Positions 1 to 33,156 of a stretch of DNA of 64,000 nucleotides are shown in pieces. The stretch is from Terriglobia bacterium. GTDB taxonomy: Bacteria; Acidobacteriota; Terriglobia; 20CM-2-55-15. The notes under the pieces are model-generated. The model was not told the origin of the DNA, ran no database searches, and was given only the letters and a program-made list of their open reading frames with translations. Position numbers and translations under genes: made by a program. The first letter of the stretch is position 1. Every line of letters begins with the position of its first letter. Location: contig CAXWPJ010000009.1 of NCBI GenBank assembly GCA_963664115.2, positions 1 to 64,000 on the forward strand, given 5' to 3'.

Positions 1-377
1 TAGTCCTCGTCTTTGATGCGAAGAGATCGGCGAGCGTCGGGCCGGTTCTGGTGAACGAAACAGAACACGCATTCGTTGTCGCACACCCATGGCTCGATGG
101 GCTCCAGTTCAACCCCAAGACTTTCCCATTCTTCCCGTACGAATTCGTGGGTCTGCCGCTGGGTCCGCAGCGACACAGGCGCATCAAAAACCGCCATCTG
201 GAACTGTAGGTCGATGACATCTTTGGGCGGTGTGCCGTTGACTTCTACGATCTCGTCACCCGCCTGAAGCCCGATTCGCGCGGCCAGCGATTCGGGTTCT
301 ACTCCCAAAATCCGCAAGGGAGCCGAGACGCCTTTATGCGTGGGCGGGGCATGCCGGTATTCATGCTGAGCCGACAT
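1..377 (-). CDS. PDZ/radical-SAM DUF512 family protein, N-terminal part (runs off the window)
   Basis: Manual translation, not in the ORF track: ATG at 377, PDZ-like LRILGVEPESLAARIGLQAGDEIVEVNG, then CDNECVFC (CxxxCxxC) and HQNRPDARRSLRIKDED. Confidence 0.85.
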   Translation of the reverse strand, partial: MSAQHEYRHAPPTHKGVSAPLRILGVEPESLAARIGLQAGDEIVEVNGTPPKDVIDLQFQMAVFDAPVSLRTQRQTHEFVREEWESLGVELEPIEPWVCDNECVFCFVHQNRPDARRSLRIKDED

Positions 378-449
378 TTTACGCGCGAGGTCCTGATCGT
401 TGGCTTTACGGACGTAGGCGCTTGAAGAAAACTGCTTTTTCGCAGCCAT

Positions 450-1043
450 TCAATGCTCGAGAAGCCTGCGGCCAACGGCGAGGTACTGGAAACCCGAGAC
501 AACGGTGAGCAGACCGGTCAGGATGAACAAAAAATATATCCCACTCTCCTCGACGCCGATCCAATTGTAGAGGAGCACGGCAAACACAGTCAGGAATTGA
601 AACACTGTGTTGGCTTTCCCGACAAGCGTGGGTGGAAAAACGCGAAAGCCGTAAGTAATGATGAACGCCAATCCACCAAGCAGTATGAACACATCGCGAA
701 AAATCACCAGTAGAAGAAGCCAGATCGGAATAGGGTTCGCAAACCCCATCTGGGGTAGTGACAGCACAACGATGGAGCTACTCATGAGCAACTTGTCAGC
801 GATCGGATCCAGGATCGCGCCCAGGGATGTTTTCTGCCGAAAGTGACGTGCAATAAGCCCGTCCATCCCATCGGTCACCGCGGCCACGCAGAAGGTGATC
901 AGCGCCCAGCCCAGCCGGTTATAAGCGAGGAGAATAATGAACACCGGGATAAAGACGATCCTCAAGAGCGTCAACTGGTTGGCTATCGTTAGAATGTTCG
1001 GCCGGTACTTCTCAACGGTACGGTCGGAGAGTCTGGTGGACAC
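450..1043 (-). CDS. CDP-alcohol phosphatidyltransferase (PgsA-like)
   Basis: NQLTLLR and DGMDGLIAR..G..LDPIADK motif; multi-TM. Confidence 0.9.
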   Translation of the reverse strand: MSTRLSDRTVEKYRPNILTIANQLTLLRIVFIPVFIILLAYNRLGWALITFCVAAVTDGMDGLIARHFRQKTSLGAILDPIADKLLMSSSIVVLSLPQMGFANPIPIWLLLLVIFRDVFILLGGLAFIITYGFRVFPPTLVGKANTVFQFLTVFAVLLYNWIGVEESGIYFLFILTGLLTVVSGFQYLAVGRRLLEH

Positions 1044-1122
1044 GCTTTTTATCCTAAAATGAGGAAAGGACGCAATGACCTCGTCACTGCGTCCTTCAAT
1101 TTTCGGCCGCTTACCGTGGAGC

Positions 1123-1551
1123 TTACTCCGCCGTCACGGGAACAACAACGTCCACGATCTGGCGCGAGCAAAAACCGTCGGATTTGGAACAAAAGAAGTA
1201 AACGAGTTCGCCTGGAATCTCATACTCACCCGCCACGGCCGCTTCCACGGCAACATTAAAAGCGGGCACGTCCACGTAATAATCGTCAGTCGATTTCGGA
1301 TCTTCTGGAGGCGACTCCAGCTTGGCCGCATCGTGCGTCAACCCTTCAACAGGCTGCAGCTTCAACTGGATCGCCGGCACGCGGTTGATCACGTATCCGT
1401 CCAGGACGTCGAACGAGACGACAACCTCGCCGCCGGCGCCGGCTTCGATGGCATCGTCAGAATAGTTCGCTTCCATAACCTGCGGCAGTCCCCCTCCCAA
1501 AGTCAGGAGCTGGGAAAGAAGAAGGATGATTCCGAATCCAAAATTCACCAT
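1123..1551 (-). CDS. Exported protein, DsbD N-terminal-like domain
   Basis: Signal-like N-terminus; C-terminal YFFCSKSDGFC Cys pair. Confidence 0.5.
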   Translation of the reverse strand: MVNFGFGIILLLSQLLTLGGGLPQVMEANYSDDAIEAGAGGEVVVSFDVLDGYVINRVPAIQLKLQPVEGLTHDAAKLESPPEDPKSTDDYYVDVPAFNVAVEAAVAGEYEIPGELVYFFCSKSDGFCSRQIVDVVVPVTAE

Positions 1552-1628
1552 AATAGTCTCCTGCGATTGCCCGTACGGATGTATTCCTCACGACATCGAA
1601 TGCGCTGGAAATCGTTCAGAATTATAAC

Positions 1629-2720
1629 ATGAGAATCATTTCCGTCGCGGGCGCCCGGCCCAACTTCATGAAGATCGCGCCCCTGGTCGCCGAGTGCAGC
1701 AGGGTCTCTGGAATCAACCACTTGCTGGTCCATACCGGGCAACACTACGACACACAGATGTCAGACGTATTCTTTCGGGATTTGTCCATTTCCTCACCCG
1801 ATATCGATCTCGGTGTCGGATCGGCGTCCCACGCGGTTCAGACGGCCCGGATCATGATGGAATTCGAAAAGGTCTGTACGCGGGAGCTCCCGGACCTCGT
1901 TATCGTCGTCGGTGACGTCAACTCGACGATGGCGGCAACCCTGGTAGCGGCCAAGCTCAACATACCGGTTGCGCACGTCGAAGCGGGCCTGCGCAGTTTC
2001 GATCGCGGGATGCCCGAGGAGATAAATCGCATCGTGACGGACCAGTTGGCGGACTATCTGTTCACGACGAGCCGGGAGGCGGACGAGAACTTGAAGCGGG
2101 AAGGCGTGAACCCTGAGAAGATCCACTTCGTCGGAAACGTCATGATCGACACTCTTCTCAAGCACCGGGGGAAGGCCGATGGTCTCAACGTTGCCTCCGG
2201 GCTGGGAATCGACGGCACAGACTACGCTCTGATGACCCTGCACCGGCCGTCAAACGTAGACAACCCGGCCGTTCTTCAGGGAATTCTTACCGCCGTTCAG
2301 GACATCTCGACATCGCTCCCGGTGATCTTCCCCATTCATCCGCGTACATCGCAACGGATCCGGGAATTCGATCTCGACGCGATGGTCCACGGCAGCGTCC
2401 GTCTGACCGACCCCCTGGGATACCTTGAGTTTCTCAACTTGATGTCGGGAGCCCGCCTGGTCCTGACCGACTCAGGAGGCCTGCAGGAAGAAACGACGAT
2501 TCTGGGCGTCCCGTGTCTGACGATCCGGCAAAACACCGAGCGCCCCGTGACAATCTCCGAAGGCACGAACGAACTGGTCGGGACGGATCCGGTCCGTATT
2601 CGGGAAGCTGCAGACAGGATTCTTGCCGGAAATTGGAAAACACCCCGCGTACCCGAATACTGGGACGGCAAAGCGGCTGAACGGATTGTTGCGATACTCA
2701 CCGCGAACGTTTCTGCCTGA
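1629..2720 (+). CDS. wecB: UDP-N-acetylglucosamine 2-epimerase (non-hydrolysing)
   Basis: GARPNFMKIAP, HTGQHY, HVEAGLRS, PEEINR, TDSGGLQEE, TERP motifs. Confidence 0.95.
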   Translation: MRIISVAGARPNFMKIAPLVAECSRVSGINHLLVHTGQHYDTQMSDVFFRDLSISSPDIDLGVGSASHAVQTARIMMEFEKVCTRELPDLVIVVGDVNSTMAATLVAAKLNIPVAHVEAGLRSFDRGMPEEINRIVTDQLADYLFTTSREADENLKREGVNPEKIHFVGNVMIDTLLKHRGKADGLNVASGLGIDGTDYALMTLHRPSNVDNPAVLQGILTAVQDISTSLPVIFPIHPRTSQRIREFDLDAMVHGSVRLTDPLGYLEFLNLMSGARLVLTDSGGLQEETTILGVPCLTIRQNTERPVTISEGTNELVGTDPVRIREAADRILAGNWKTPRVPEYWDGKAAERIVAILTANVSA

Positions 2721-2754
2721 ACTGCACAACTGTCGAAGAGAAGCCGAAGATTTC

Positions 2755-2932
2755 ACCGCAAAGGCGCAAAGACGCAAAGGAAGATGGGATGGTCTGTGTA
2801 GATTTCGTCTGATCGCAACTCTATGGGTTCTCAACGACGTTCTTGCTAACCCGAATAACTCCAGTCGAGCGGGATGAAGGCAGGCTATCCCGTCCTGCTT
2901 TTTCTTCCTTTGCATCTTTGCGCCTTTGCGGT
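2755..2932. repeat. Inverted-repeat element copy 1 (CGCAAAG family)
   Basis: 30-bp arms ACCGCAAAGGCGCAAAGACGCAAAGGAAGA at 2755-2784 and its reverse complement at 2903-2932, one mismatch. Confidence 0.9.
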
Positions 2933-3111
2933 TAATCCCCTCTTAATTCTTCCCTTAAATGTCTCGAAAGCCCGGAAAAAGTGGGTCGTTGACCCGGAGG
3001 TTATGGGTCAGACGCCCATTCAGTTTCAATAGTTTAGTGGAGGACCATGACATGCTCAGTCGTCGATGGGTCGGTGACGATGATTACTCTGTTAACTTCG
3101 AGTGGGATAAA

Positions 3112-3657
3112 ATGGCACATATGGATACCAAGGGGCCGGCGACGATCGACGATCTCTATAACGTTCCCGAAGACGGGCGTAAATACGAGCTGGTCGACGG
3201 AGAGATTCTGGTGAGCCCGGGTGGGTTCCGCCACGGCCAAGTCTCCGTCCAGATCGGCTACCTGATCAAACGATTCCTGGAAGGTTCACCGATCGGCGTT
3301 GTCTGCGGCGCGGACCTCGGCATTATCTTCCCCAACGGCAACTTGAGATCTCCGGACGTAACTTTCGTTCGTAACGAAAAGGTCCCAGCCGGGGAGGCGG
3401 CTGAGCGATTTCTTGAGGCTGTGCCCGACCTCGTGGTCGAAGTACTTTCTCCGGGCGACCACATGCGGCATGTCGCAGACAAGATCGGTGAGTTCCTGGA
3501 ATCCGGTGTGTGTCTGGTCTGGTTGGTCGACCCTCAGCCCGAAACCGTCACGGTGTACCGCTCGTTGACCGATACCCGCCAACTCCGGGGCGACGACCTC
3601 ATCGACGGAAACTCTGTCCTTCCAGGCTTCAAAGCGAAAGTCTCCGACTTCTTTTAG
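3112..3657 (+). CDS. Uma2 family (PD-(D/E)XK-like) endonuclease
   Basis: YELVDGEI, H in GFRHG, RSPDVTFV, PDLVVEVLSP, WLVDP, LPGF motifs; start 3112 or 3121 more likely than 2959. Confidence 0.9.
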   Translation: MAHMDTKGPATIDDLYNVPEDGRKYELVDGEILVSPGGFRHGQVSVQIGYLIKRFLEGSPIGVVCGADLGIIFPNGNLRSPDVTFVRNEKVPAGEAAERFLEAVPDLVVEVLSPGDHMRHVADKIGEFLESGVCLVWLVDPQPETVTVYRSLTDTRQLRGDDLIDGNSVLPGFKAKVSDFF

Positions 3658-3698
3658 CTTCAGCTGAACTGCAGATTACTCAGACCGAAACAAAATCT

Positions 3699-3877
3699 TT
3701 CACCGCAAAGGCGCAAAGGAAGATGGGTTGGTCTGTGTGAATTGCGTCGGACTGAACCTCTATGGGTTCTCAACAGCATTCTTGCTAACCCAGACAGCTC
3801 AAGTCGCGCAGAACGTAGGCAGTCTTTCCGTCTTTCTTTCATTTTCTTCCTTTGCGTCTTTGCGCCTTCGCGGTGAA
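3699..3877. repeat. Inverted-repeat element copy 2 (CGCAAAG family)
   Basis: TTCACCGCAAAGGCGCAAAGGAAGA at 3699 and TCTTCCTTTGCGTCTTTGCGCCTTCGCGGTGAA ending 3877; spacer homologous to copy 1. Confidence 0.9.
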
Positions 3878-4207
3878 TCCCCTCTCAGTTCTTCCTAAAG
3901 AAGTCTCGAAAGCTGCGCCTTTGCGGGTCGCGGTTTTAGCGGTCTTTCACTTCCCCTCTGTTTGATTTCAGTGCGTTAACAACGGACCTCTCCGTGCACT
4001 TCTAGTCAGCGTTCCGGTGGATGGCGGGCTTGGGGGCTCAATTAACCGAAGGGCCGGTGCCTCCGACGTGATTCGCCGGAACTCATTCTCCAAATTCCTC
4101 TCGGCGGTTAGAAGGCGAGGCTGTGTATTTACAAATGGAAAGGGCCGCAGTTTCGCGGGCCGCCGGGAGGAAACACATCCAACCACTATTACCTCAAAGG
4201 AGGTTTC

Positions 4208-4513
4208 ATGTTTCGAAAAGCATTTGCAGCGACGCTCCTCTTCACGTTCCTGTTCGCCATGGCCACGATCGCGCCCCAGAGCAGTGAAGCTCAGTCTGCG
4301 ACCACCATGGTCATCGATATCAATTCGGCTCCCCTGGCTGCGCTCCAAGGCATCGTTCAGGACGAGGGTCTCGCCCAGCGGATCATCGAAAATCGGCCGT
4401 ATGCCAACAAACGGCAGTTGCTTTCACGTCAACTCGTGTCGGCAGAGCAATACGACGAGATCAAGGACAGGATCATTGCTCGACGGATCGAGGATTCGGA
4501 AGACTCCCGGTAG
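4208..4513 (+). CDS. Secreted helix-hairpin-helix (ComEA-like) protein
   Basis: GGAGG RBS, signal peptide, IDINSA..LAQRIIENRPY motif. Confidence 0.75.
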   Translation: MFRKAFAATLLFTFLFAMATIAPQSSEAQSATTMVIDINSAPLAALQGIVQDEGLAQRIIENRPYANKRQLLSRQLVSAEQYDEIKDRIIARRIEDSEDSR

Positions 4514-4520
4514 CGCGGCA

Positions 4521-4808
4521 ATGTACGCGCGCATGGTGATCGGCGAAGCAATCCATGAAGATCAGGTTTCAGAGTTCGTTCGGATCTACGAGTCAGAAGT
4601 GCTTCCCAAGCTCCACGACGAACCGGGGTTCGAATCGGCGAACTTCATGGTCGAAGATGGAGGCCGGATGGCGATTTCGCTCACGCTCTGGCAATCCCAG
4701 CAGGACTGCCTGAAATACCACTCCAGTATGGCTTACCGCCAGTTGGTGGAAAAAACCCAGCATCTGTTGAAAGGCAGTTTCATCGTGCGGTTATTCCGTA
4801 CCGTTTAG
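4521..4808 (+). CDS. Antibiotic biosynthesis monooxygenase (ABM)-like protein
   Basis: MYARMV..EPGFES..SLTLWQS..YHSS..Y pattern; real start is inside ORF 4017-4808. Confidence 0.7.
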   Translation: MYARMVIGEAIHEDQVSEFVRIYESEVLPKLHDEPGFESANFMVEDGGRMAISLTLWQSQQDCLKYHSSMAYRQLVEKTQHLLKGSFIVRLFRTV

Positions 4809-4842
4809 GCCCGAGACAGAAAGCGGGGGAGGCAAGAGACCT

Positions 4843-4946
4843 AACCGCAGAGACGCAAAGGCGCAAAGGAAGAGAGAAGAGTCAGTTTGTCTTTTCTGAA
4901 AATCATTTTTCTTTGTCTTCCTTTGCGCCTTTGCGTCTTTGCGGTT
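4843..4946. repeat. Inverted-repeat element copy 3, between convergent genes
   Basis: 31-bp arms AACCGCAGAGACGCAAAGGCGCAAAGGAAGA at 4843-4873 and reverse complement at 4916-4946, one mismatch. Confidence 0.9.
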
Positions 4947-4982
4947 CAAACTTCTTGCCTCTTCATATCCATGCCTCTGCGT

Positions 4983-5999
4983 TCATTCTTTTTCTTTTCT
5001 GCGGTAGGGCCTGAAATCGACGTTGCATCGGTGGCGCCGCAGGAAGTCCATGAATCGCTTGTAATCGGTGTCGGGCATATTAAAGAGTCGGACGACCTTT
5101 CTGTAGCTACCGTGGGTTTGAACCAGGCCACGCCGGATGACGGCCTCGACCTGTCGCTTGGTGATCAGACGGTCGGTGTAGGGCCGGGCGACCGATTCCC
5201 AGAAATCGTCGACGACGACTGCCTCGACAGGTTCCCGAACCAGGGCATCCGTGGGCAGCGTGATCGCATCCGGCGCAATAATTTCTGTCTCCGACATGTA
5301 GTAGCTGCTTTCAATGACGTTCTGCAGTTCGCGAATGTTTCCCGGGTAATGATAGGCAAGCAACTTTTCCATGGCATTGGGCGACAGAGTTCTCTCTTCT
5401 CCACTGTCGGCATTCAGCGATGCGACGATATGACGCACCAGAAGCGGGATGTCGGACCGGCGCTTTCGAAGCGGGGGAACTTCAATCGCAAATACGTTGA
5501 GACGGTAGAGGAGGTCTTCGCGGAAATCACCCGAACGCGCCATCGACCGAAGGTCACAGTTGGTGGCGGCGATTATGCGGGCGTCGATCGGGCGGTCGAC
5601 AACGTCACCGAGTCGACGCACCTGCTTCTCCTGAAGCACGCGGAGAAACTTCACCTGGAATCGTTTGGAAGTATTCGCAATTTCATCCAGGAAGAGCGTT
5701 CCCTGGTTCGCTTGCTCAAAAAGTCCGGGTTTGTCGCCGATGGCCGTCGTAAAGGCGCCACGCCGGTAGCCGAACAGTTCGCTTTCGACCAGTTCTTCCG
5801 GAAGGGCACCGCAATCAATGGGCACGAACCGGCGCTGGCGGCGGCTGCACTGATCGTGAATAGCACGTGCGACCAATTCCTTTCCGGTACCGGTCTCTCC
5901 CTGGATCAGAACCGAACTCGAAGTTCTGGCAGCGGCTTGAATTTTTGAGTGCAGGAGTTCGACCGCATCACTTTGTCCAATCATTTTTGTTCGCATCAT
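4983..5999 (-). CDS. Sigma54-dependent transcriptional activator (AAA+ and HTH, no sensor domain)
   Basis: GETGTGKE, ESELFG, GAFTTA, LFLDEI, FREDLLYRL, YPGNIRELQN; start MMRTKMIGQS. Confidence 0.9.
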   Translation of the reverse strand: MMRTKMIGQSDAVELLHSKIQAAARTSSSVLIQGETGTGKELVARAIHDQCSRRQRRFVPIDCGALPEELVESELFGYRRGAFTTAIGDKPGLFEQANQGTLFLDEIANTSKRFQVKFLRVLQEKQVRRLGDVVDRPIDARIIAATNCDLRSMARSGDFREDLLYRLNVFAIEVPPLRKRRSDIPLLVRHIVASLNADSGEERTLSPNAMEKLLAYHYPGNIRELQNVIESSYYMSETEIIAPDAITLPTDALVREPVEAVVVDDFWESVARPYTDRLITKRQVEAVIRRGLVQTHGSYRKVVRLFNMPDTDYKRFMDFLRRHRCNVDFRPYRRKEKE

Positions 6000-6020
6000 G
6001 ACACTACAGCCGGAGCAGAC

Positions 6021-6547
6021 ATGGAAAAGGTCACTCAAAAATTGGAGCAAGGCAGCCCGGAGGTTCTCGAAGAGCTCGGTCGCGCAATCCGAAAGATCCA
6101 TGGCACGCGCGATCCGGATCTCGAGCAGGAAGTCTTTCTCAGAACGCTCAAGGCGTTTCGGAAGGAAAGAAGGTCGAGCATCCGCGGGCACTCATATGGA
6201 AGATCGCCAAAGACACGGTCGCTGACCATTGGAGGCTCAGGGCGCGGGACCGTTGGGACCCCCTGGACGAACTCCAGCACCCGGCCGCCCAGGACACGGA
6301 TGCCGAACGCGACCTCGATCGAAAACGTCGTGTCGAACAATTGCGAAACGGGATCCTGCGACTTGGATGCGACATCCGGGGATCGGTCTACCTGTTTTAC
6401 ATGGAAGGCTATTCGGTTTCCTCGATCGCGCGGATTTATGGAAAGACGCCCTCCGCGGTCAAGATGGCCCTCTACCGGGGACGGCGGCAATTGGTGCGAA
6501 TGTTTCGATCGGACGCGACTAACAAGTCGGGCTTCGAGCGACTTTGA
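6021..6547 (+). CDS. ECF sigma factor, apparent frameshift near 6165-6172
   Basis: Region 2 DLEQEVFLR continues in another frame as ALIWKIAKDTVADHWR, then region 4 LFYMEGYSVSSIARIYGKTPSAVKMALYRGRRQL. Confidence 0.8.
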
Positions 6548-6562
6548 GGCCCGCCAGAGCCG

Positions 6563-6636
6563 TAACTCATTGATCTCAAGACGGACTAAGAATGGAACCC
6601 CACGTGAAACAGTCTGAGTCGGGCACACGGTCCGCG
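6563..6636 (+). promoter_or_regulatory. Candidate IHF site plus sigma54 -24/-12 promoter for the peptide genes
   Basis: GATCAATGAGTTA on the minus strand (6563-6575) resembles WATCAAnnnnTTR; GG-CACACGGTCC-GC at 6622-6635. Caveat: predicted +1 near 6647 falls just after the GGAGG. Confidence 0.4.
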
Positions 6637-6657
6637 ATCTGGGAGGATCAACACACA

Positions 6658-6840
6658 ATGAATCGACAAATTGTAACGCTCAGCAGCACAGAGCTCATGG
6701 GAACAGTCGGCGGTGACTGGAATTGGCACGATTTCTTTGCGGGGGCCACCTGGGGTTTAGGCGCAGGCTGCGGGATCAGCGGTCACCCCGTTCTGTGTAT
6801 GGGCGCCCTGTTTACTGGCGGCATAACGATGTTCTTCTAG
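6658..6840 (+). CDS. Double-glycine leader peptide precursor 1 (bacteriocin-like)
   Basis: GGAGG upstream; leader MNRQIVTLSSTELMGTVGG matches LSxxELxxxxGG; Gly-rich hydrophobic 41-aa core; C39 exporter downstream. Confidence 0.85.
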   Translation: MNRQIVTLSSTELMGTVGGDWNWHDFFAGATWGLGAGCGISGHPVLCMGALFTGGITMFF

Positions 6841-6852
6841 GAGGAATGAACA

Positions 6853-7038
6853 ATGACATCACACGTCCAAGACATTTCCGCATTGGAACTCCAGCAAATT
6901 GGTGGAGGTGACTGGTTTGAAACCACCTGGGGAATCCTGCTCGGCACGGGATTCGCTGCCGGCTTCCTCGGTTCGGGTGGACTGCTGACGATTGCAGGAA
7001 TCGCCGGATTTGGCCTGATCTTCGGTCCCCCGTTCTAA
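6853..7038 (+). CDS. Double-glycine leader peptide precursor 2 (bacteriocin-like)
   Basis: AGGAGG RBS; leader MTSHVQDISALELQQIGG(G); core with several GxxxG motifs. Confidence 0.85.
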   Translation: MTSHVQDISALELQQIGGGDWFETTWGILLGTGFAAGFLGSGGLLTIAGIAGFGLIFGPPF

Positions 7039-7131
7039 GCATTCAACCTCTTCAACCCTTAGGTGCGCTCGAATGGGCGCACCTCGCATTCCACCTGGAC
7101 CTGCGTGCCATGCGCGCACAAAACTAAATCA

Positions 7132-7872
7132 ATGGACGTCTTTCAACTCGAACAAGCCGTCAAAAAGCGCAGCGACGATTTTGTCCTGGGACCGCTCGAC
7201 CTTCATCTCTCAGCGGGGGAAATCCTCGGTGTCATGGGCCCTAACGGTGCGGGCAAAACCACCCTCCTGCGATTGTTGTGGGGCTTTCTGCGTCCGGACG
7301 CCGGGCGCGTGTCTGTGTTCGGCAGAACACCCCATCTGGAACAGGTCTGGATTCGTCTACGGGCGGGCTACCTTCCCGAGTCGTTGAAGTTCTATGACTG
7401 GATGACGGTGGATCGATTCCTTGCGTTCATGGCCGGTTTCTATCCGTCCTGGGACTGGGGCCATGCCCTTGAACTCCTGGAGCAGTTCGGAATAACTCCC
7501 GCCCGGACTATCGGGACCTTATCCAAAGGAAATCGGGTGAAGCTGGGCCTTCTGGCAGCGGTGGCCCATCGGCCAAAGCTACTGATCCTGGACGAACCGA
7601 CCTCGGGTCTGGACCCCTTGATACGAATCGACATCCTCCATTTCCTCCGATGCTCCGCACAAGAAGACGGCACGGGAATCGTCCTGTCCTCTCATGTGTC
7701 CGACGATCTGGACCGGATTGCCGATTCCGTTCTGATGCTGAACGACGGCAAGGTATTGGAGTATGCGCCGACTAAGGTTCTGCTCGACAAAACCAACGAA
7801 ACTCAACTGGAGGCTGTGTTTTTGAATGCGGTCGGTAGGATTCCCACATCTCGCGTTCCACATCGCGCGTAA
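7132..7872 (+). CDS. ABC transporter ATP-binding protein (ABC-2 type, possible self-immunity)
   Basis: GPNGAGKTT, LSKG, LDEPTSGLDP, SSH. Confidence 0.9.
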   Translation: MDVFQLEQAVKKRSDDFVLGPLDLHLSAGEILGVMGPNGAGKTTLLRLLWGFLRPDAGRVSVFGRTPHLEQVWIRLRAGYLPESLKFYDWMTVDRFLAFMAGFYPSWDWGHALELLEQFGITPARTIGTLSKGNRVKLGLLAAVAHRPKLLILDEPTSGLDPLIRIDILHFLRCSAQEDGTGIVLSSHVSDDLDRIADSVLMLNDGKVLEYAPTKVLLDKTNETQLEAVFLNAVGRIPTSRVPHRA

Positions 7873-8461
7873 AGACTGGGCCGAAGCGCGTCATGTCGTG
7901 ATCGCGCTGACCCTGGGTCTTATGGTTCCCGCCCTGCGCGTCCGCTTCGCTCCGGGCCGTTCGGACGACTTCGCAAAAGGTCTGCTGGCCGGCTTGCTCG
8001 CAGGTGCCGGTTTCGGCTACGCCCAGTTCTGTTTCCTGAACGAACGCCAGCGAGGCACACTGGAGTTTCTGCTCAGCCTTCCCATTGAGCCCCGACAGCT
8101 TGTCCTCGCCAAATTCGTCTCCCTGTACTCAATGGTCCTTTTCACCGTAAATGTCCCTGGCCTGCTCGTCCCAGACCTTCGGCTCGTCTACATCACCAAC
8201 GCCGCAGCCCTTTCACTAGCAACCGTCTTCATGGCCACAACGGTCATCTCAGACAAGCCCTGGGCCTCGCAAATACCCGTCTGGTTCCTTCTCGTCTTCA
8301 TCCTCCCCATCCAACGCCTCCTCGAACGCTACTACCCCAACGGACTGCAGCTCTTCGAAACCCTCACCGCCAACCCCATTCTGTTAGCGACATTCGCCTT
8401 GCTCGTCAGCCCGCTCGTTGTCGCTGTATCCGTTTCGATTTTTCACCGCAAAGGCGCAAAG
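7826..8461 (+). CDS. ABC-2 permease; no stop codon, reads through into the GxxExxY domain (ORF ends 8839)
   Basis: Multi-TM; ERQRGTLEFLLSLPI..LVLAKF motif. Confidence 0.8.
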
Positions 8462-8950
8462 GTGAATGAGAACCCTTTGTCACGGAAGGTCATTGGGGCC
8501 GTAATTGAAGTGCACCGCATCTTAGGCCCGGGCCTACTAGAGTCGATTTATCAAGACTGCCTCGACATTGAGTTCCGGCTTCGAAGAATCAGGTTCGAAA
8601 GGGAAAAGAGAATCCCTCTCATCTACAAAGACCAAGATCTGAGAGAGCGCCTTCGTATCGACTTTCTCGTCGCAGATGAAGTCGTAATCGAAACCAAATC
8701 CGTTCACTCGTTACTGCCCGTACATGACGCGCAAGTGCTCACGTACCTAAAGTTGACCGGCTGCAAATTAGGTCTGCTGATCAACTTCAACGTCCCAGTA
8801 GCAAGAGACGGAATCAAACGCATCGTAAACCGCCTCTAGCCCCCCCCCCTTTTTCGTTTGCATCGACGCCCCCTTTGTTTCCCATTCGGATTCCCCCTCC
8901 CCCATATAGAATCGTCTTTCTTCTTTGCGTCTTCGCGCCTTTGCGGTGAA
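8442..8950. mobile_element. GxxExxY cassette bounded by CGCAAAG-family inverted repeats (copy 4)
   Basis: TTCACCGCAAAGGCGCAAAG at 8442-8461 and CTTTGCGTCTTCGCGCCTTTGCGGTGAA at 8923-8950 enclose the nuclease ORF; mobility is inferred. Confidence 0.6.
8462..8839 (+). CDS. GxxExxY protein (PD-(D/E)XK-like nuclease fold)
   Basis: VHRILGPGLLESIY, RIDFLV..VVIETK, HDAQVLTYLK, GLLINFN. Confidence 0.92.
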   Translation: MNENPLSRKVIGAVIEVHRILGPGLLESIYQDCLDIEFRLRRIRFEREKRIPLIYKDQDLRERLRIDFLVADEVVIETKSVHSLLPVHDAQVLTYLKLTGCKLGLLINFNVPVARDGIKRIVNRL

Positions 8951-9100
8951 CCTCTTCATGTCTTCGCCTTGAAGCTCTAAATTCCCCGCTTTATCTCCCC
9001 GTACCCACACAAACAAATCGCCGATCAAGCGTCTTTCCCATTCTTGGTCCTATGGTGTGAGCCGTTTAGCTATGGCCCCCCAACTGCCCTTTCTCCCACT

Positions 9101-11175
9101 GTGGCATACACCATCATTCACCAGCATGACGCCAATGACTGTGGCCCCGCGTGTCTGGCGATGGTGGCGGCGCATTATGGAAAACGTCAGTCCATTGCTC
9201 GACTCAGAGAAAAATCTGGAACCGACCGCCAGGGCACAAACCTCGCAGGGCTAATACAGGCGGCCCAGGAAGTGGGCTTCGAGGCCCGTGGCGTCCGCGC
9301 CACCCCGGAAGGCCTCACCGAGGTCACGCTCCCCGCCATCGCCCCCTGGTCCGAAGACGGGCGGAACCACTTCGTCGTCCTGTTCAAACAAAGCTCGCGG
9401 CGCATTACGATCGGCGACCCCGCCCTTGGTGTACGCAAGCTCACACCCGAAGAATTCGCTGCGCACTGGACCGGGATACTCGTACTTCTGAAACCCACCC
9501 TCAACTTGCGGGATCTATCCACGCCCTCGCTTTCGAAACTGTGGTCCCTGGTTGGCCACCATCGAAAGCTCTTCCTGGATGCACTGCTCGCGGCAGTCCT
9601 CATGACGATCCTCGGCCTCGCCTCAGCCTTCTTCATCCAAGTCCTCGTCGACTTCGTGTTCCTTGTTGGAGCCGAACCCACCTTAAACTGGCTCGGCCTG
9701 GGATGCTGCTCGTGCTGGGTGCGCGTGTCGCGTTCCACGGCCTCCGAGCCTATCTCCTCGCCCACCTCAGCCACCGGATCGATGCGGACATTGTGTTGGG
9801 ATACCACCATCATGTCCTGGGACTGCCGCTTGATTTCTTCTGGACCCGCCGGACCGGCGAGATCCTCTCCCGCTTGTCTGATGCGATGAAGATCCGCCTG
9901 GCGATCAGCGGGACTGGCCTTGCCGTCATCGTCGACGGCATCACCTTGATTCTGACCGCCACCATCATGTGCATCCTTCATTGGAAACTGGCCATCGCTT
10001 CTCTCGCTCTTTTGCCAGTGCTCGTCGTTGTCCTCTATGGTTTGACGGGGCCTATGAAACGCGCCCAGCGGACGGCCATGGAGCGGGCCGCACACTTCGA
10101 GTCGCACACCGTAGAAGCCGTCAGCGCCATCGATACGGTCAAGGCGTTTCGGGCCGAAGACCGCATGCGGCTTCGCGGCGAAGTCCGCTTTGGTGAGTTG
10201 ATCGACGCCACGTTCCGGGCCGAGATCTTTGCCTTGCACGCCTCCACCTTAACAACGTTTCTGACCGGACTGGCAAGCCTGACGCTGCTGTGGGTCGGCG
10301 GGCGCGAAGTCCTCGCCGGTGGTCTGAGCGTCGGTCAGCTCATGGCACTCTTCACGATGTTGGGAACCGTTATTGGCCCCGTCGAACGACTGGCCAATGC
10401 GAATCAATCCATACAGGACGCATTGGTCGCTGGAGAACGCCTTGGGGAAATTTTTGAAATAGAGCCCGAAGAAAATCGGGAACCTCAGGAAAGATCGATG
10501 AAGGTCGCACGTTCCATTGAAGGTGCCATCGAATTTCAGAACGTGACATTTGGCTATGGAAACCGGCCGCCCGTCATCAAAGATCAGAGCTTCCGCATTG
10601 ACCCCGGCGAATGTTGCCGCATCGTAGGCGCAAGCGGTAGCGGCAAGACAACGCTTGCCCGGGCGCTGGGACGGTTTCTGAAACCCCACAGTGGGCGTGT
10701 CTTAATTGATGCCATCGATGTCAACGATTACACCCTGGAGAGTCTGCGCCGCCAGGTGGGCTATGTCTCCCAGGACGGGCACATACTGAGTGTCTCCATC
10801 GCCGACAACATTCGCCTGGGCCGGGCGGACGCTTCCCCTACAGAAGTCCGCCTGGCCGCGACCCAGGCCGGAGCCGCCGCATTTATCGAACACCTACCCC
10901 TGGGCTACAACTCGCTGGTCGGCGAGCGCGGCACTACCCTATCGGGTGGGGAACGGCAGCGCTTGCTCCTGGCACGGGCCATTCTTGTCAACCCGCCCAT
11001 ACTGGTTCTTGATGAACCGACCAATCACCTCGACCGGGCATCGACACAGGCAGTCCGGGAACTGATCGATCAGCGCAAACGCGACCACCGCACAACGATC
11101 ATAATCTCCCACGACGAACTGCCCGCCCACAGAACGATTGCCATCGACAGCAACACTTATGCGCTGGCGAACTGA
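9101..11175 (+). CDS. Peptidase-containing ABC exporter (C39, TMD, NBD), apparent frameshift near 9700
   Basis: QHDANDCGPACL, HFVV, IGDPA triad; GASGSGKTT, LSGGERQ, LDEPT, ISH; frames switch at GGCCTGGGATG. Confidence 0.9.
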
Positions 11176-12328
11176 GCTTAACCTCGGCGGAAAGCCCCGC
11201 CTGGTGGGCGCGACGGTCTACGTCCTTGCCACTCTCCTGGCCATTGCACTCACATGGAGTTATTTCACTGAAGTGGACGTCGTCGTCCGTGCACCCGGCC
11301 TGGTCCGGCCCGATGGCGAAGTCGTTCGAATCACCTCCGAGGTCGCCGGAACCATCGAGGCCGTCCACGTTGAGGAGGGCGACGCAGTTCACACAGGTGA
11401 CATCGTCGTCCGGTTGGACAACCAGCAGATCCGTTTGGAACGCGAAACGATAGAACACCAAATCGCTCTCGCCGGGGAACAACTCCGGGACCTCGATCGC
11501 AGGATCGCGACCACGGCCAGAATCCACGTTCTGGAACTGGAAAAGCTCGACACGGAAATCCGCTCAGCCCGTCAAGTCCTGGAACAAGGACACAGGGAAC
11601 ACGCGGCTCAAATGGAATCAGCCTCGCTTCGGCTGGAACAGACACGCCAGGAACACTTGAGGAACCAGCAATTGTTCGCGGAAGGACTCATCTCCCGGCA
11701 AACTTCGGATCGCTTCCGGAACGATTTCAATCTGGCCGAGGCCCAGCACCTGGAAATCCTCTATCGGAAACCCACTGACGCATCCTTGCAATCGTTGCTG
11801 GAAACGAAAAATTTGATCGATGCGGAACTTGAATCACTCCAACAGGACCTTCGGATGGAATCCGTGCCGATCGAGGCCCAACGGACCGAACTCCGGTCAC
11901 GACAACAGCAAGTCGATCAGGAAGCGGAGCGCCGCTTCATTCGCAGCCCGTCTACGGGCCAGATTACCCTGCTGCCCACAGTACATCCGGGAGAACATAT
12001 TGCCGCCGGCACTCTGATCGCAACGCTGGCCCCGACACCGGTCCGTCCCATCGTCGAGGCCTGGGTCCCAAACGCCAAGGCCACGGACCTTCGGCCCGGC
12101 CATCCCGCCCGTCTCCGTCTTGACGATTCGGAAACCATAGACGGCATCGTCTTCGCCGTCAGCCCGAACGTGCGGTTTACCGAGTCCGCGAACGGCGCCT
12201 TCCAGGTCCTGATCGCCCCCGACACGCTGGGCCTCCGCCTCGGCCTGGCCGTCGACGTCCGCATCATTACACGCCAGGAGCGAGTCCTGACCTTGCTGTT
12301 CAACAGAATCGAAAGGGCGTTTGACTAA
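11138..12328 (+). CDS. HlyD family secretion membrane fusion protein
   Basis: N-terminal TM, GTIEAVHVEEGDAVHTGD, long coiled coil, IRSPSTG. Confidence 0.9.
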   Translation: MPSTATLMRWRTELNLGGKPRLVGATVYVLATLLAIALTWSYFTEVDVVVRAPGLVRPDGEVVRITSEVAGTIEAVHVEEGDAVHTGDIVVRLDNQQIRLERETIEHQIALAGEQLRDLDRRIATTARIHVLELEKLDTEIRSARQVLEQGHREHAAQMESASLRLEQTRQEHLRNQQLFAEGLISRQTSDRFRNDFNLAEAQHLEILYRKPTDASLQSLLETKNLIDAELESLQQDLRMESVPIEAQRTELRSRQQQVDQEAERRFIRSPSTGQITLLPTVHPGEHIAAGTLIATLAPTPVRPIVEAWVPNAKATDLRPGHPARLRLDDSETIDGIVFAVSPNVRFTESANGAFQVLIAPDTLGLRLGLAVDVRIITRQERVLTLLFNRIERAFD

Positions 12329-12432
12329 CTAGTAATTCATACTCGGAAAGCTAACACTGGCCTCCAACTGGCCCACATGACAATGCCCGACCCTTGACTC
12401 GACTTCTGGCCTACGCACAACGGGTGTACTAG

Positions 12433-14281
12433 ACCCAAAACAAGCGCATAACCAGTCCGCCGAGGCCCAGTTCGCGCCGATAGAATTCGAGGCATAGAAT
12501 CCCGTTCCCGGATGGCCTGTTCCAGGTATCGAGTTTCTGTTGAATCTGTTTCAGTTCAGCCTCGCTGGTGTTGGACGGTTGACAGAAACCGGGACCTCGA
12601 TCGCCCGGGCTCAGAGTCATGATCGGGTCAACATCGCAGAGGCTGACGCAACACATCCACCCCGCGGAACAAGACCGGCAACCACCGGTTCCAGGCCAGG
12701 ATCCGGAACAGAATGCGCCGCCCGGTGCGCACGAGTTGGCACGGCACAAGCATGAAAGCGTTCAAGAAGGTTTTGAACTCCATGCGCAGCACGGTTTGCT
12801 TCTCAGCCTGATATTTTTGGCCCCAACGTCCGGTTTCGGGAAGCAGCAATGCAAACCACGCTTTCAGTGTCCAGGCCAGTGACGCGATCACCATGTAGGC
12901 CCAGTTGCTGGTCTGATCTCCGACCGGCATCCGCAACGCCTGAACGCCGTTCTTCAACTGCTCAATGAGATTCTCCTGATTGCACCGTTGATTGGCACGC
13001 ATCACAATCTGGTCGGCCGGATCCGAACGGTTGGTAATGTAGAAGAAGTACCGGATGTCGTCAAACAACACCTGCTCTCCTTTGGCCACCGACAGATTCT
13101 TCCGCACCACGACGACACGGTAGTCCCGATCGCAGGCTCCGGGTCGATACCGAAACTCGGCCACATCCTCACCCTGCAAGCGGATATTGTCGAAACCGCG
13201 CTGCCGAACGATCTCTTCCTTCACGTTGTCGGGACGTTGGCGCGGTTCGGTCGCCACGTCGTATTTCGCGGGCCGTTCCAGGCGCTTCCACTGGCGCGGC
13301 TCCAGTTCATCGGCCCGGGCCTTCAGGTTCGCCATCGCGTCAATCCCGAATATGAAACCCACCTGCTGGTCGTCCCATCCGTCCAGATGCCGGGTCTGGC
13401 TGAAGTCCGTGTCCCCGCGCAGCAGGATCTGGCGAAACCCCGCATGCCGGCACAATGCGATGGCTTGGTCGAACCGGACCGCGGCTCCTTCATGCGACGG
13501 CCGGTTGCCGCTACGATTGACCAGATACAGCGGTTCGGCGGTGTTGGCCAGCGAGATCATCAGCGGGTGATATCCCCACGTCCCGTCGTAGGCCACGTCC
13601 ATCCCTTGCTTGCATTCCCCCGTGGTTTCGGCCAGTGTCCCGTCCGCGTCCAACACCGCTTCTTCGAAAAACGCCGCCGGTTGCTGTCGCCAGACTCCGA
13701 GCCGGACTTGATTGGTTGCCTCCATCAGACACTCCACGTCGTCGGCCTCGAATCTCCGGCAGAAGTCTCCCGCCGTCGTCGGATCCGGAATCCGTTGCGC
13801 TCCCAGCGCATCCAGATACACCGCATCGTTGCGCCGCAGTTCGATGTCTTCCAGGCACGTTCCTCCGCTCAAGGCGTTGTAGGCGATGTTCAGCACGTGA
13901 TCCGACTCGTGATACGGCAGGTGCCGCTTCAACACATGCACGCCCTTGTCGATGGCTTCGATCAGCCCGGTCCGCCGCGCCACCAGTTGCATCGTCCCGA
14001 TACCACCAACCGATGTGCCCCGCGTCCGCTCTCCCATCTCGTACTGAATGTTGCTCGCCGAAAACATCGGCTCTACCTGATCCGTCCAATGCCGGTCCCC
14101 AAGCCGACGTTCGATTCGCCGCTTGCGGTTCCTCATGTTCTTGCGCGTATAATCGTTCATCTGAAATGCCTCCTTTTCCGAAGAATCTGTTCAAGGTTTT
14201 TTTCGCACGGAGACGGGGCATTTCGGGTACTTCCGCTCTTATTGCACTATCATTTCCTCGTCAATCACGCTTGTTCAGGGT
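12433..14281 (-). mobile_element. IS1380 family insertion sequence
   Basis: Imperfect terminal IRs ACCCAAAACAAGCG and CGCTTGTTCAGGGT, with CTAG on both flanks (12429-12432, 14282-14285). Confidence 0.85.
12628..14160 (-). CDS. IS1380 family transposase
   Basis: PDPTTAGDFCRRF, LDADGT, GYHPL, LRGDTDF, RCNQENLIEQLK motifs. Confidence 0.9.
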   Translation of the reverse strand: MNDYTRKNMRNRKRRIERRLGDRHWTDQVEPMFSASNIQYEMGERTRGTSVGGIGTMQLVARRTGLIEAIDKGVHVLKRHLPYHESDHVLNIAYNALSGGTCLEDIELRRNDAVYLDALGAQRIPDPTTAGDFCRRFEADDVECLMEATNQVRLGVWRQQPAAFFEEAVLDADGTLAETTGECKQGMDVAYDGTWGYHPLMISLANTAEPLYLVNRSGNRPSHEGAAVRFDQAIALCRHAGFRQILLRGDTDFSQTRHLDGWDDQQVGFIFGIDAMANLKARADELEPRQWKRLERPAKYDVATEPRQRPDNVKEEIVRQRGFDNIRLQGEDVAEFRYRPGACDRDYRVVVVRKNLSVAKGEQVLFDDIRYFFYITNRSDPADQIVMRANQRCNQENLIEQLKNGVQALRMPVGDQTSNWAYMVIASLAWTLKAWFALLLPETGRWGQKYQAEKQTVLRMEFKTFLNAFMLVPCQLVRTGRRILFRILAWNRWLPVLFRGVDVLRQPLRC

Positions 14282-14518
14282 CTAGACTCGCTCTTCCCTT
14301 GGAGCGCCGCCCAGGGCGTAGCGCAAACCGGCAGCGTATGACTCCAACTCGCTGCGGCGGATGTTCAACCTTATCTTCTCTTCAAGACTCCGCTCGGGGT
14401 CGCGATATTGCTTCATGAGTTCTACGAGTTGGTTGCTGGTTGTGGCCAACTCTTCCCGTAGGTCCTCCGCCCCTCGCAAGGCATCGCCTGTGACCGTCTG
14501 TGTTGCTGTCGCTGACAT
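14282..14518 (-). CDS. Small coiled-coil hypothetical protein
   Basis: GGAG RBS; its TAG stop coincides with the IS flank CTAG. Confidence 0.6.
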   Translation of the reverse strand: MSATATQTVTGDALRGAEDLREELATTSNQLVELMKQYRDPERSLEEKIRLNIRRSELESYAAGLRYALGGAPREERV

Positions 14519-14554
14519 GATTTCTCCGTGTTCAGACGTCCGTCGGCCAGCATT

Positions 14555-15873
14555 TCAGTACTCCCAGACCGCGATCGGGTAATACGGAAACGTACTGTTT
14601 GCACTGGCGATCGTGCTCGTGTTGTAAATGATTCCTGCACCGCCACCGCCGTTGAAGTCGGCAATGATATCTCCCCGCGTCGACCGCAGGGCTCCCAGCG
14701 GTTCGGACATCGTTGCCGTGTCGCGCGTCTTCGCAATAAACACGCCTCCTTGTACCTCTCCGTTCCCACCACCGTTCCAGTGCATTTCTCCCTGGCCGAT
14801 CGCCAGAACCAGGCCGTTCCAATTGAAGTTGCCCGAAAGTGTCAGGACACCCCGTACCAGCAGAATGCCGTAGCCGGTTCCGGGCCCGAACGTGGCATCG
14901 CCGTTGACGACGACAACACGGTAGTCGCTGGCACTTCCGATGTCACCGATCGAAGTCGAGCTTCCGAAGCCCGGCGTGTAGGTGTCTGTGGCCGAGTCCG
15001 AGATGCTGGAGACGATGTCCTCCAGCCCGGACACTGTTTCCAGCGATGTCGAAAGGTCAGTGCTGACGTCTTCGACGTCTGGTGTGGCACCGCCATCACC
15101 GGTGTAGTTGGAAACCCGATTTGCGGGAATGGCGCCGGTTACGGTCGTATCGTCCCCCGCAGAAATGACACCGATAGCATTCTCGTTGTTGCCGCTACCC
15201 GCCGAATCAAATCCATCCACGCGGAACAGATTCGAATTTGCGGCATCGAACAAACCGATGCCTCCGTTGAGAGTCAGCGCTGCCGGAATGGGCGGAAAGG
15301 TTCCTTTCTTGACGTCGGCTGCTATCGTCAGCGTCGCGTTGCCGATGGTTCCGATACTCACCAGGGTGACGACATCATTTGCATCCGTTGTCGCAGTCTG
15401 ACCTTCCGCCGGATCGTTGCGCATGAATACATGGTAGGCGCCTATGGTTTGCCCGGAACCATTGTCGAGGGTCTGGCCCGTCGTTCGGAGTACCGTCGTA
15501 CTCCGGCTTCGACTCAGTCGCTGTTGACGTTGGAAAAGCAATTACGTTACATTAATTTCGACGGGCTAGATGGCAGGAGGGGCTGGTCGTCGGTTGCCAG
15601 GAGCGTGGCCAGGTCCATCGATGCCGACAGCGTCGTGTCCGTCCCGGCAGCCGCCACCATATCCGTGGTCAGATCGTTCGCCGAAACCCTCAACGTTTCC
15701 CGGGCTGCATCGAGACCGGCTTCGGTGAGGAACAACAACTGTGCGTTGGTTTTGTAGTTATCGGCGATCTTAAGGTCGACCGTCGTGCTGGATAAGAGTG
15801 CTCCGCCCACGACCGTGAGAAATGCGAGCAGCATCAGGGCCGTGATCAGCGCCATACCACGCTGTGATCTCAT
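14555..15873 (-). CDS. PilX N-terminal domain type IV pilus-associated protein, apparent frameshift near 15545
   Basis: Prepilin-like QRG/MALITALMLL..TEAGL N-terminus; C-terminal GYGILLVRG..F.WNGLV beta-rich domain in the adjacent ORF. Confidence 0.75.
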
Positions 15874-16240
15874 TTCCGAAACCTCCGTCTAGGGATCAGT
15901 CGAAACTACTCTCAGGCCACAACTAAGGCAAGCTTAATTAATATATTTATTATAGTTATTGATGGCACTTTAGGGGGTGGGGGCCTTAAACGGTTCCACA
16001 ATGCACAGTCGGAAAACCTGCTGAACCGTTGTTGAAAAACACCAAAGCCGTTTCGGACGCTTGATTTGAATTCCTAAGTCTGACTCCTAAGATATAGGAC
16101 GACTTTTTGGTTGAAGACACCCTGCCAGTGGAAGAAATCAACGAAGACTTCCATCACTGGAGTCGCCCAAATTACTGGAACTGATTACAAACCGCCTGCC
16201 GTTGCCGCGCACAGGCATCGTGAAAGAGAGGGGATTTCTA

Positions 16241-31771: not shown

Positions 31772-33156
31772 GAGTTATTGTCAAAAGTGGTGTTTAGGAG
31801 ATTGATTCAAGCGGCGGCCTGATCGACTTGTGTCGCTTCGACACCATCGTTGAATTTCACTCCGATGATTACCTTGCTCAGATCATCGAATCCTCGTAAT
31901 CGTCGCCAATTGTTCTCAGCGCACTGGCCCAGTTTGAACATCATGTGCAGCATGCCATCCCGTGTCAGGCAACCTCTGGATCGCTTCGTTCGGTGTCGAA
32001 TGGTGGCAAAGGTCGACTCAATGGGATTCGTCGTTCTGATGCTCTGCCAGTGCTTGGCCGGAAAGTCGTAAAAGGCCAGCAGTTCCTCTCTGTCTTTCTG
32101 CAGGCAGAGTGTGGCTTTCGGATACTTCGGTTCATAGGTTTCAATGAACAAGTCGAATGCCTTCTCGGCGTCTGCCTTCGTCTCGGCCTGCCAGATCGAG
32201 TGCAGGGCCTGTTTCGCCTTCGCCTGGACCGACTTGGGCAGGCAGTTGAGGACGTTCATGACTTTGTGCATCCAGCAACGTTGTTGACGTGTCTCGGGAT
32301 AGATTTCCTCCAGTGCGGCCCAGAACCCCATCGCACCGTCACCGATGGCCAACTTCGGAACATTCATCCCACGGGACTTCAGCTTCAACAAGACCTCGCG
32401 CCAACTCTGTGTCGATTCCCGTACACCGTCTTCGATCGCCAGGAAACGCTTCTCTCCGCGTTCATTCACGCCGATCACGACCAATGCACACAACTTGGTT
32501 TGTTCCGCCCGAAGTCCGCTGTAGATGCCGTCGGCCCAGACATAGACCCAGCGATCTGCATCCAAACGCTCCTCGCATCCGAGGCGGTACTGTTCGCCCC
32601 AAACCTGTTTCAACCGCGATACCGTGCTCGCCGACAGACCCTGCGCCTGGGGACCGACAAGAACTTTTAGGGCCTCACCCATCTCGCCGCTGGAAACGCC
32701 TTTCAAATACAACCACGGCACCGCTGCTTCCAGCGACTTCGTCTTCCGAATGTACGGTGGTACCAGGGCCGATCGGAACGTCACAGCTTCGCCCGTCTTG
32801 GCACGGACCTTCGGGATTTGGACTGTTACCGGACCCAATCCCGTCTGCAGTTCGCGTTCCGGCAGATAACCGTTGCGTACCACCCCGGCGTTTCCTGTCT
32901 CAGTTCGCCGGCCACCGTGCTGGGATAGCAGCTCTGCCAATTCGGCTTCCACTGCGCGTTGGATCAGTTGCTGTGCCCCAACTCGTAGTAGTTCTGTTAC
33001 TGGATCCTCAATCGTTTCTCGACCTTCCGGTCCATTCACGTTACTCTTGCTCACAGTGGCGTATCTCCTATGGTTGCTTTGAAGTTTTGTCACAACAAAT
33101 CAACCAGATACGCCGCTCTTATTCAATCCCTCAAACACCAGATTCGGTTATAACTC
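31772..33156 (-). mobile_element. IS256 family insertion sequence
   Basis: Imperfect IRs GAGTTAT..TGGTGTTT..GATTGA at both ends; flanks do not match, so no target duplication. Confidence 0.85.
31807..33054 (-). CDS. IS256 family transposase
   Basis: RNGYLPER, YLKGVS, WADG, IGDGAMG, QRCWMHK, TTNPIES. Confidence 0.93.
   Translation of the reverse strand: MSKSNVNGPEGRETIEDPVTELLRVGAQQLIQRAVEAELAELLSQHGGRRTETGNAGVVRNGYLPERELQTGLGPVTVQIPKVRAKTGEAVTFRSALVPPYIRKTKSLEAAVPWLYLKGVSSGEMGEALKVLVGPQAQGLSASTVSRLKQVWGEQYRLGCEERLDADRWVYVWADGIYSGLRAEQTKLCALVVIGVNERGEKRFLAIEDGVRESTQSWREVLLKLKSRGMNVPKLAIGDGAMGFWAALEEIYPETRQQRCWMHKVMNVLNCLPKSVQAKAKQALHSIWQAETKADAEKAFDLFIETYEPKYPKATLCLQKDREELLAFYDFPAKHWQSIRTTNPIESTFATIRHRTKRSRGCLTRDGMLHMMFKLGQCAENNWRRLRGFDDLSKVIIGVKFNDGVEATQVDQAAA

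Follow-up and report, generated by a model that had tools for sequence, protein, structure and literature searches.

We describe an operon in a 64,000-nt stretch of DNA from Terriglobia bacterium (GTDB 20CM-2-55-15; assembly GCA_963664115.2, contig CAXWPJ010000009.1, positions 1-64,000 of the forward strand), hereafter the window. It carries genes for two small double-glycine precursors, A and B, followed by those for an ABC-2 ATPase and permease, a C39-containing ABC exporter (PCAT) and an HlyD-family membrane fusion protein. On balance, the peptides are probably unmodified antibacterials of the class II microcin or Blp kind, secreted by PCAT, HlyD and TolC, with an ABC-type system for self-protection. 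What is directly observed is the gene content, the intact catalytic motifs, the synteny across the family, a promoter box, and a paired change of the two peptide cores between close relatives.

In the mechanism we propose, an activator without a sensor domain would open a sigma-54 box so that the operon is transcribed, the C39 domain would cleave both precursors after Gly-Gly, and PCAT and HlyD with an unlinked TolC-like channel would export the cores. A would fold as a hairpin, possibly closed by a disulfide, and B as a membrane helix, and the cores would then act on the inner membrane of competing bacteria. Because the cores are anionic, reaching that target membrane would call for a receptor rather than charge. 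The ABC-2 pair would expel peptide from the producer's own membrane. Probably B is the ancestral unit, able to work alone, and A, in one clade, is a partner that makes B stronger or changes its target.

The gene order common to relatives is activator (reverse strand), extracytoplasmic function (ECF) sigma factor, peptide or peptides, ATPase, permease, PCAT and HlyD, and the unit begins at 4983, upstream of the peptide genes with which the first-pass annotation had opened it. No modifying enzyme is found in this conserved gene set, though an unlinked one may exist, and among small hydrophobic open reading frames (ORFs) of 25-140 aa in 6500-12450, there is only B and a 33-codon antisense ORF. 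The gene set and the ORF scan thus bear out the lack of both a modifying enzyme and a small immunity ORF reported in that annotation. Downstream of HlyD, N-termini read in 6 loci, without a family scan, give no gene in common except in one near-identical pair.

Precursor peptides

Both tandem precursors are sound ORFs on the forward strand. Precursor A (6658..6840) has a 19-aa double-glycine leader and a 41-aa core with two Cys, and precursor B (6853..7038) has a 19-aa double-glycine leader and a 42-aa core. The leader register is L/I-12, E-8, L-7, x-4, G-2, G-1, and the leaders of relatives end in IRGG|DW or TTGG|DW. The register and the relatives together place the predicted cleavage of B before Asp, and therefore the Gly first proposed as a possible opening residue of the B core belongs to the leader.

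The window cores are anionic and free of Lys and Arg, as was noticed from the start, and they are hydrophobic (hydropathy 0.66 and 1.07). Across the family, 47 of 49 split B cores are net negative and 42 have no Lys or Arg, and two Cys are present in 12 of the 15 split A cores and a negative charge in 14; these statistics omit 5 of the 20 A and 1 of the 50 B sequences, and in a few the split is misplaced or one Gly off. A DW start is conserved across the family, whereas the final Phe of the window cores recurs in only 30/49 B and 3/15 A cores. GxxxG motifs are indeed present, 3 per core, but their number is no higher than in composition shuffles (P = 0.19 and 0.46), so it lends no weight to the idea that A and B pair.

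Aligned with each other, A and B match at 96.9% probability over 48 columns, leader included. The single-chain model of A is a hairpin (helices 23-41 and 44-59, pLDDT 83) with the two Cys flanking the turn; that of B is one long helix of low global confidence (pLDDT 77, pTM 0.36). The A model finds nothing by Foldseek at E ≤ 0.001, and sequence searches of the Protein Data Bank (PDB) with the A and B alignments reach E = 0.32 at best. The window peptides have no match in Pfam and NCBIfam at E ≤ 0.1. Relatives do show weak matches to PF10439 (7 of 19 A members and 12 of 48 B members), the top of 26 rescored being 26.5 bits in a relative, and no tested member reaches the cut-off of 27.1 bits. 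The nearest language-model (Atlas) clusters are Blp/Bacteriocin_IIc, at 0.93 and 0.92. Microcin models give no sequence match to the peptides, and ComC/BlpC models match far below cut-off and only in the leader. The first-pass annotation had staked its case on the lack of close characterised homologues, and none was found in sequence, profile or structure searches.

Two relatives encode very short double-glycine precursors in the same operon (L030:8071-8175 and L031:7667-7768), with 19-20-residue cores that are more pheromone-like.

Divergence and distribution

Four close pairs of loci were compared, a small sample of related pairs, with the activator left out of the L021/L061 comparison. For L020/L019 and L022/L023, respectively, flanking genes have nonsynonymous differences (pN) of 0.015 and 0.021, while the pN of core A is 0.30 in both pairs, with synonymous differences (pS) of 0.59 and 0.52 against 0.12 and 0.16, and that of core B is 0.16 and 0.21. 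The A leaders in these two pairs are 18/19 identical despite the core change. Neither core stands out in L021/L061, and the cores are identical in L024/L063. By these comparisons, both cores have changed in two of the four pairs and neither in the other two. A raised synonymous rate suggests that core A was replaced by recombination.

The B profile matches 15 of the 35 family genomes at E ≤ 0.01, including two weak matches confirmed as shorter peptides; the A profile matches 10 strongly and 2 weakly, and A and B are adjacent in 10. B was found in none of 400 other Acidobacteriota sampled, where scoring covered at most 15 candidates in each genome. The operon is restricted to one Terriglobia family among those searched. 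Protein searches give 50 B and 20 A homologues, with 55 B profile matches among 50%-cluster representatives, and the names listed, including those of distant homologues (30 cluster look-ups), are "hypothetical" or at most "bacteriocin-like". In several relatives, the locus has a fixed chromosomal neighbourhood.

The ECF tree of 34 loci has two well-supported clades. One, of 18 rows, contains 13 loci with A and B, 2 with B alone, and 3 without a peptide; the other, of 16 rows, has one peptide at most. The B-only loci L091 and L094 look intact, with B directly behind the promoter box, and A is never found intact without B. From the clade counts and these two loci, it follows that A with B is usual in one clade and that A can be dropped.

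Stepwise states of loss are seen in L028, L029, L026, L034, L035, L062 and L065, ranging over PCAT directly behind ECF without a peptide, PCAT without adjoining regulators, and promoter plus ATPase without peptides. In two g3 genomes (L023:2900-9500 and L022:9000-11500), the stretch from the intact cassette to PCAT holds tandem repeats, now decayed, made up of an ECF fragment, a promoter, a peptide variant and a permease fragment. A second cluster in genome G004 (L018, contig C2) is near-identical, downstream genes included, to L020 of a genome of another genus (G007), which is either bin contamination or recent transfer.

Predicted export and candidate self-protection

The ABC-2 pair, the C39 exporter with its triad, and HlyD are all recovered by domain search. 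PCAT (9044..11175, forward strand; PF03412 plus ABC membrane and ATPase domains) has the C39 Gln/Cys, His and Asp motifs and the Walker A, signature and Walker B motifs all in place, and its closest relatives in named records are from Terriglobia bacterium at 71-85% identity. HlyD (11138..12328, forward strand) matches PF13437, and TIGR01843 below cut-off. Eleven OEP-domain matches in the genome supply candidates for the outer channel. PCAT and HlyD likely cut and export the peptides.

The ATPase (7132..7872, forward strand; PF00005) has PmtA, GldA and DrrA as best NCBIfam matches, all below cut-off. The permease (7826..8460, forward strand, about 211 aa; PF12679, PF12730, PF13346) scores 27.3 bits against a cut-off of 27.2 on PF12679, is kept behind the ATPase in relatives, and has no match to plasmids. 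Judged from position only, the pair likely serves producer self-protection; protection of producers by ABC systems is documented for nisin, subtilin, AS-48 and lacticin Q (PMC8538875, PMC4155820).

In the window, the permease runs in frame into a GxxExxY gene (insert 8461..8950, forward strand, the gene ending at 8839; TIGR04256 143.7 bits) that is separate or absent in relatives. On either side of this gene (window 8436-8950) lies a palindromic repeat, of which the genome has 79 copies, and the gene is likely not part of the system. GxxExxY-like genes also lie behind the permease in several relatives, sometimes fused in frame, and behind PCAT in L030; gene and repeat are possibly a repeat-associated mobile unit.

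Predicted regulation

The first-pass annotation overlooked three predicted regulatory elements at this locus: a box ahead of the peptides, an activator of sigma-54 type without a sensor domain, and the ECF sigma factor. The activator (4983..5999, reverse strand, start inferred; PF00158, E = 1.8 × 10−64) consists of AAA+ and C-terminal domains only, and the proteins of relatives likewise begin at the AAA+ domain, without an N-terminal sensor. Its GAFTGA loop is GAFTTA in the window; read in 28 of 30 loci, the loop is GAFTTA in 25, GAFTSA in 2 and GAFTNA in 1. The Phe and Thr that contact sigma-54 (PMC3105312) are kept, and the C-terminus is distinctive and conserved. The ECF gene (6021..6547, forward strand) is head to head with the activator, with about 21 nt between starts. 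On TIGR02937 (cut-off 42.9), the intact ECF copy of contig C10 reaches 44.7 bits. Of the 35 family genomes, 30 have ECF, frequently with no peptide operon, which makes the regulator pair more widespread than the peptides.

The −24/−12-like box (6593..6608, forward strand) lies 65 nt 5′ of peptide A and is a predicted sigma-54 promoter; RpoN is encoded in the genome. Its consensus is TGG-[AC]AC-N5-[GT]TG[AC], mostly 59-75 nt before the first peptide, and the canonical TTGC at the −12 part occurs in just 3 of 15 training sites. The spacing of five bases between the two conserved parts fits sigma-54 geometry, while ECF promoters would have a spacer of 16-17 nt, which makes an ECF promoter the less likely choice. 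In leave-one-out tests, the box comes out as the top site of its locus 9 times in 15, and it has P ≤ 0.012 in 6 of 7 held-out loci, and the window box is the highest-scoring site in the genome, itself being part of the matrix training. Behind ECF genes that no peptide or ATPase follows, the box score is low (1.7-8.8) in 9 of 10 loci; in the tenth, L073, it is high and the site is inside an ORF.

About 25 nt 3′ of the box, many loci have a second conserved motif, CCCGGCCC-like and weaker in the window; base pairing between this motif and the ribosome-binding region of the 5′ leader is conceivable.

Integrity of the locus

As assembled, the window has PCAT and ECF reading frames each interrupted by a missing base. 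Window 1-14285 occurs again at G000:C10:366445-380728 with 99.9% identity, complementary single-base errors, and an end at the insertion sequence IS1380, and is probably an assembly duplication. The C10 copy carries the bases missing from the window after 9702 (PCAT) and after 6171 (ECF), and is itself short one near 9342. Reads were checked in four runs from four studies, one of which may be the source of the window. The base after 9702 is present at full depth in all four, so that with the C10 copy, we attribute the PCAT frameshift to an assembly error, take PCAT as intact, and reject the real frameshift. The base after 6171 is present in three, and the fourth run matches the window; ECF may be broken in one population. 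A homopolymer near 9345 is one base short in one run and partly so in a second. None of the four runs shows a change in the peptide genes.

That the cluster is decaying in this organism and makes nothing, which the first-pass annotation had tied to a real PCAT frameshift, is accordingly very improbable. The genome is rich in insertion sequences, with IS1380 just after HlyD, one run shares the ECF frameshift, and relatives have interrupted genes and remnants. Against these, PCAT is open and the peptide genes unchanged in every run, pN is below pS for every gene in comparison with the same-genus locus, and the promoter is the top-scoring site of the genome, with the caveat already given for its matrix.

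Comparison with known systems

A review gives the class II microcin locus a five-part layout with leader, PCAT, membrane fusion protein and unlinked TolC (PMC10233263). Class IIa microcins (MccV, MccL, MccN) resemble the present system in their diderm host, double-glycine leader, PCAT with membrane fusion protein, unlinked TolC, Gly-rich hydrophobic cores, and lack of modification beyond possible disulfides. The operon has the Gram-negative producer, products below 10 kDa, leader, PCAT and membrane fusion protein of that class, with TolC represented by candidate OEP proteins only and the absence of modification judged within the conserved gene set. It departs in having two tandem precursors, an ABC-2 pair instead of a small immunity gene, a sigma-54 box with activator and ECF, and a host in Acidobacteriota. 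The siderophore microcins are a poorer fit, their Ser/Gly-rich C-terminal motif and modification genes being absent and the cores ending in hydrophobic residues. The anionic cores had been offered as a novelty, but most microcins are described as neutral or anionic and highly hydrophobic, MccV being near neutral and MccL anionic (PMC10233263).

Class IIb bacteriocins and Blp-type Bacteriocin_IIc (PF10439), with lactacin F, ABP-118, brochocin C and thermophilin 13 among those named in a class IIb review (PMC2850506), share two adjacent unmodified precursors in one operon, double-glycine leaders, a dedicated transporter with accessory protein, Gly-rich helices, and the nearest Atlas clusters. 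Two different adjacent precursor genes in one operon are present here, and for leaders of 15-30 residues with a dedicated ABC transporter and accessory protein, there are the 19-aa leaders, PCAT and HlyD, with cleavage predicted. The differences are the diderm export route, B without A, the lack of a dedicated immunity gene and of the pheromone-kinase-regulator trio, and the missed PF10439 cut-off. Class IIb is held to require adjacent genes, an immunity gene and both peptides (PMC2850506). As the immunity gene expected of both classes is lacking here, we file the system under neither, although it looks to work like a class II microcin or Blp peptide.

The second ABC ATPase and permease beside a dedicated exporter recalls NisFEG/SpaFEG, As-48EFGH and LnqEF, which act against lantibiotics and circular or leaderless bacteriocins in monoderms, in place of the diderm here; TIGR03740 is far below cut-off on the ABC-2 pair. 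The regulators recall PspF and HrpR/S-HrpL in the activator without a cis regulatory domain, the kept loop Phe and Thr, and the association with ECF (PMC3105312), differing in that the box is downstream of the ECF gene and before the peptides, and in the GAFTTA loop. No PspA- or HrpV-like gene is seen at the locus.

Literature searches, read as listings, turned up neither a two-peptide microcin nor a class II peptide family in Acidobacteriota, although the supplements of microcin surveys may list similar peptides. The 15 confirmed microcins of a 2022 review are all enterobacterial (PMC10233263), the later-validated examples consulted are from Gammaproteobacteria (PMC12219008, PMC13188072), and the portion of PMC12219008 consulted has no mention of two-peptide forms or Acidobacteria.

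Weighing the possible roles

An antibacterial function is favored by the match of the layout to class II microcin loci, with RpoN and the OEP proteins in the same genome, by nearest look-alikes that are Blp/Bacteriocin_IIc, with a relative just short of the PF10439 cut-off, by the mostly net negative cores without Lys or Arg, by cores that diverge between close kin where flanks do not, and by the ABC-type precedents of NisFEG, As-48EFGH and LnqEF. Several points weigh against it. The cores are 41-42 aa, compared with 74-90 aa in known class IIa microcins, and every class II microcin is said to have a small immunity protein (PMC10233263), where the locus offers the ABC-2 pair only. Permease pN is 0.024-0.027 in the core-changed pairs and 0.030 in an unchanged pair, hence does not track the cores, and the permease as an allele-specific immunity factor is unsupported. 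HlyD was found in none of the five genomes of genus g3, one of them a single contig with both peptides and an intact PCAT, and ATPase or PCAT genes are split or interrupted in several relatives. Finally, double-glycine peptides may have non-toxin roles (PMC10233263), and only 1 of 6 tested Acinetobacter candidates killed (PMC13188072).

One such role would be on the producer itself: the peptides, secreted or in HlyD-less lineages periplasmic, could form part of a matrix or amyloid, be surface-active, or bring about autolysis. Biofilm is promoted by the amyloid fibres of MccAB1 (PMC13188072), the gonococcal Nap peptides cause autolysis without antimicrobial activity (PMC11798529), and the fixed neighbourhood, the sub-threshold PmtA match of the ATPase and the lack of HlyD in g3 also speak for such a role. 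Rapid paired core change fits conflict better than a structural role, however, the predicted models are helical, and the peptide genes are often lost, being kept in 15 of the 35 genomes, so we consider this unlikely. We give slightly less credence to the suggestion that the peptides are secreted signals (pherotypes) feeding back on the sensor-less activator or ECF, possibly with the ABC-2 pair as sensor. A dedicated regulator pair is at the locus, sensor-less activators are under the control of another protein, as with PspF and HrpR/S (PMC3105312), allelic core types exist, and the cores of L030 and L031 are just 19-20 aa. But genomes that lack the operon still keep the regulator pair, the ComC/BlpC resemblance stops at the leader, and cores of this length and hydropathy would diffuse poorly. 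The secreted signal pair of the first-pass annotation is weakened by a conserved gene set that has no histidine kinase or response regulator, and by the absence of any locus gene that varies with the cores.

Within the antibacterial assignment, A and B may pair as class IIb peptides do, the genomic signs being mixed. The paired core change and the absence of intact A without B are hints in favor; B alone in the intact-looking L091 and L094 makes strict two-peptide dependence doubtful, and the sister clade is single-peptide. Of the new class IIb or microcin-like family first proposed, what stands is an undescribed unmodified double-glycine family with microcin-type export in a diderm; the arguments from charge and GxxxG do not. 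A fuller version, in which anionic A and B kill diderms together, matched core alleles are exchanged between lineages behind fixed leaders, an ABC pump protects without an immunity protein, and a sensor-less sigma-54 activator with ECF is the switch, is a tentative proposal that we would not expect to hold in full. If true, such a two-peptide microcin would be a bridge between microcins and class IIb bacteriocins in Acidobacteriota, from which we found no such peptide described. If active, the peptides would carry competition by unmodified bacteriocins into a phylum that is abundant and mostly uncultured. The points that sustain interest are a host phylum new for such peptides, the exchange of cores in pairs, the ABC-2 pair, and the predicted sigma-54/ECF control. 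Cores of 41-42 residues are short enough for synthesis, and the natural allele pairs provide a ready test of A-B specificity.

Other features of the window

Scans for sigma-70 promoters and terminators are at chance level, and Rfam has no match in window 1-16000. RNA folding gives a 10-bp stem-loop 3′ of the peptide genes (7061..7084, forward strand), a possible transcript stabiliser or attenuator. Window 12429-22929 matches contig C4 as well. Two insertion sequences, at 12429-14285 (IS1380) and 31772-33156, have dozens of near-identical copies across contigs, a recent expansion. By self-comparison, the window also contains a 39-nt tandem repeat array (58375-58651) and a direct duplication of about 260 nt (54391-54911).

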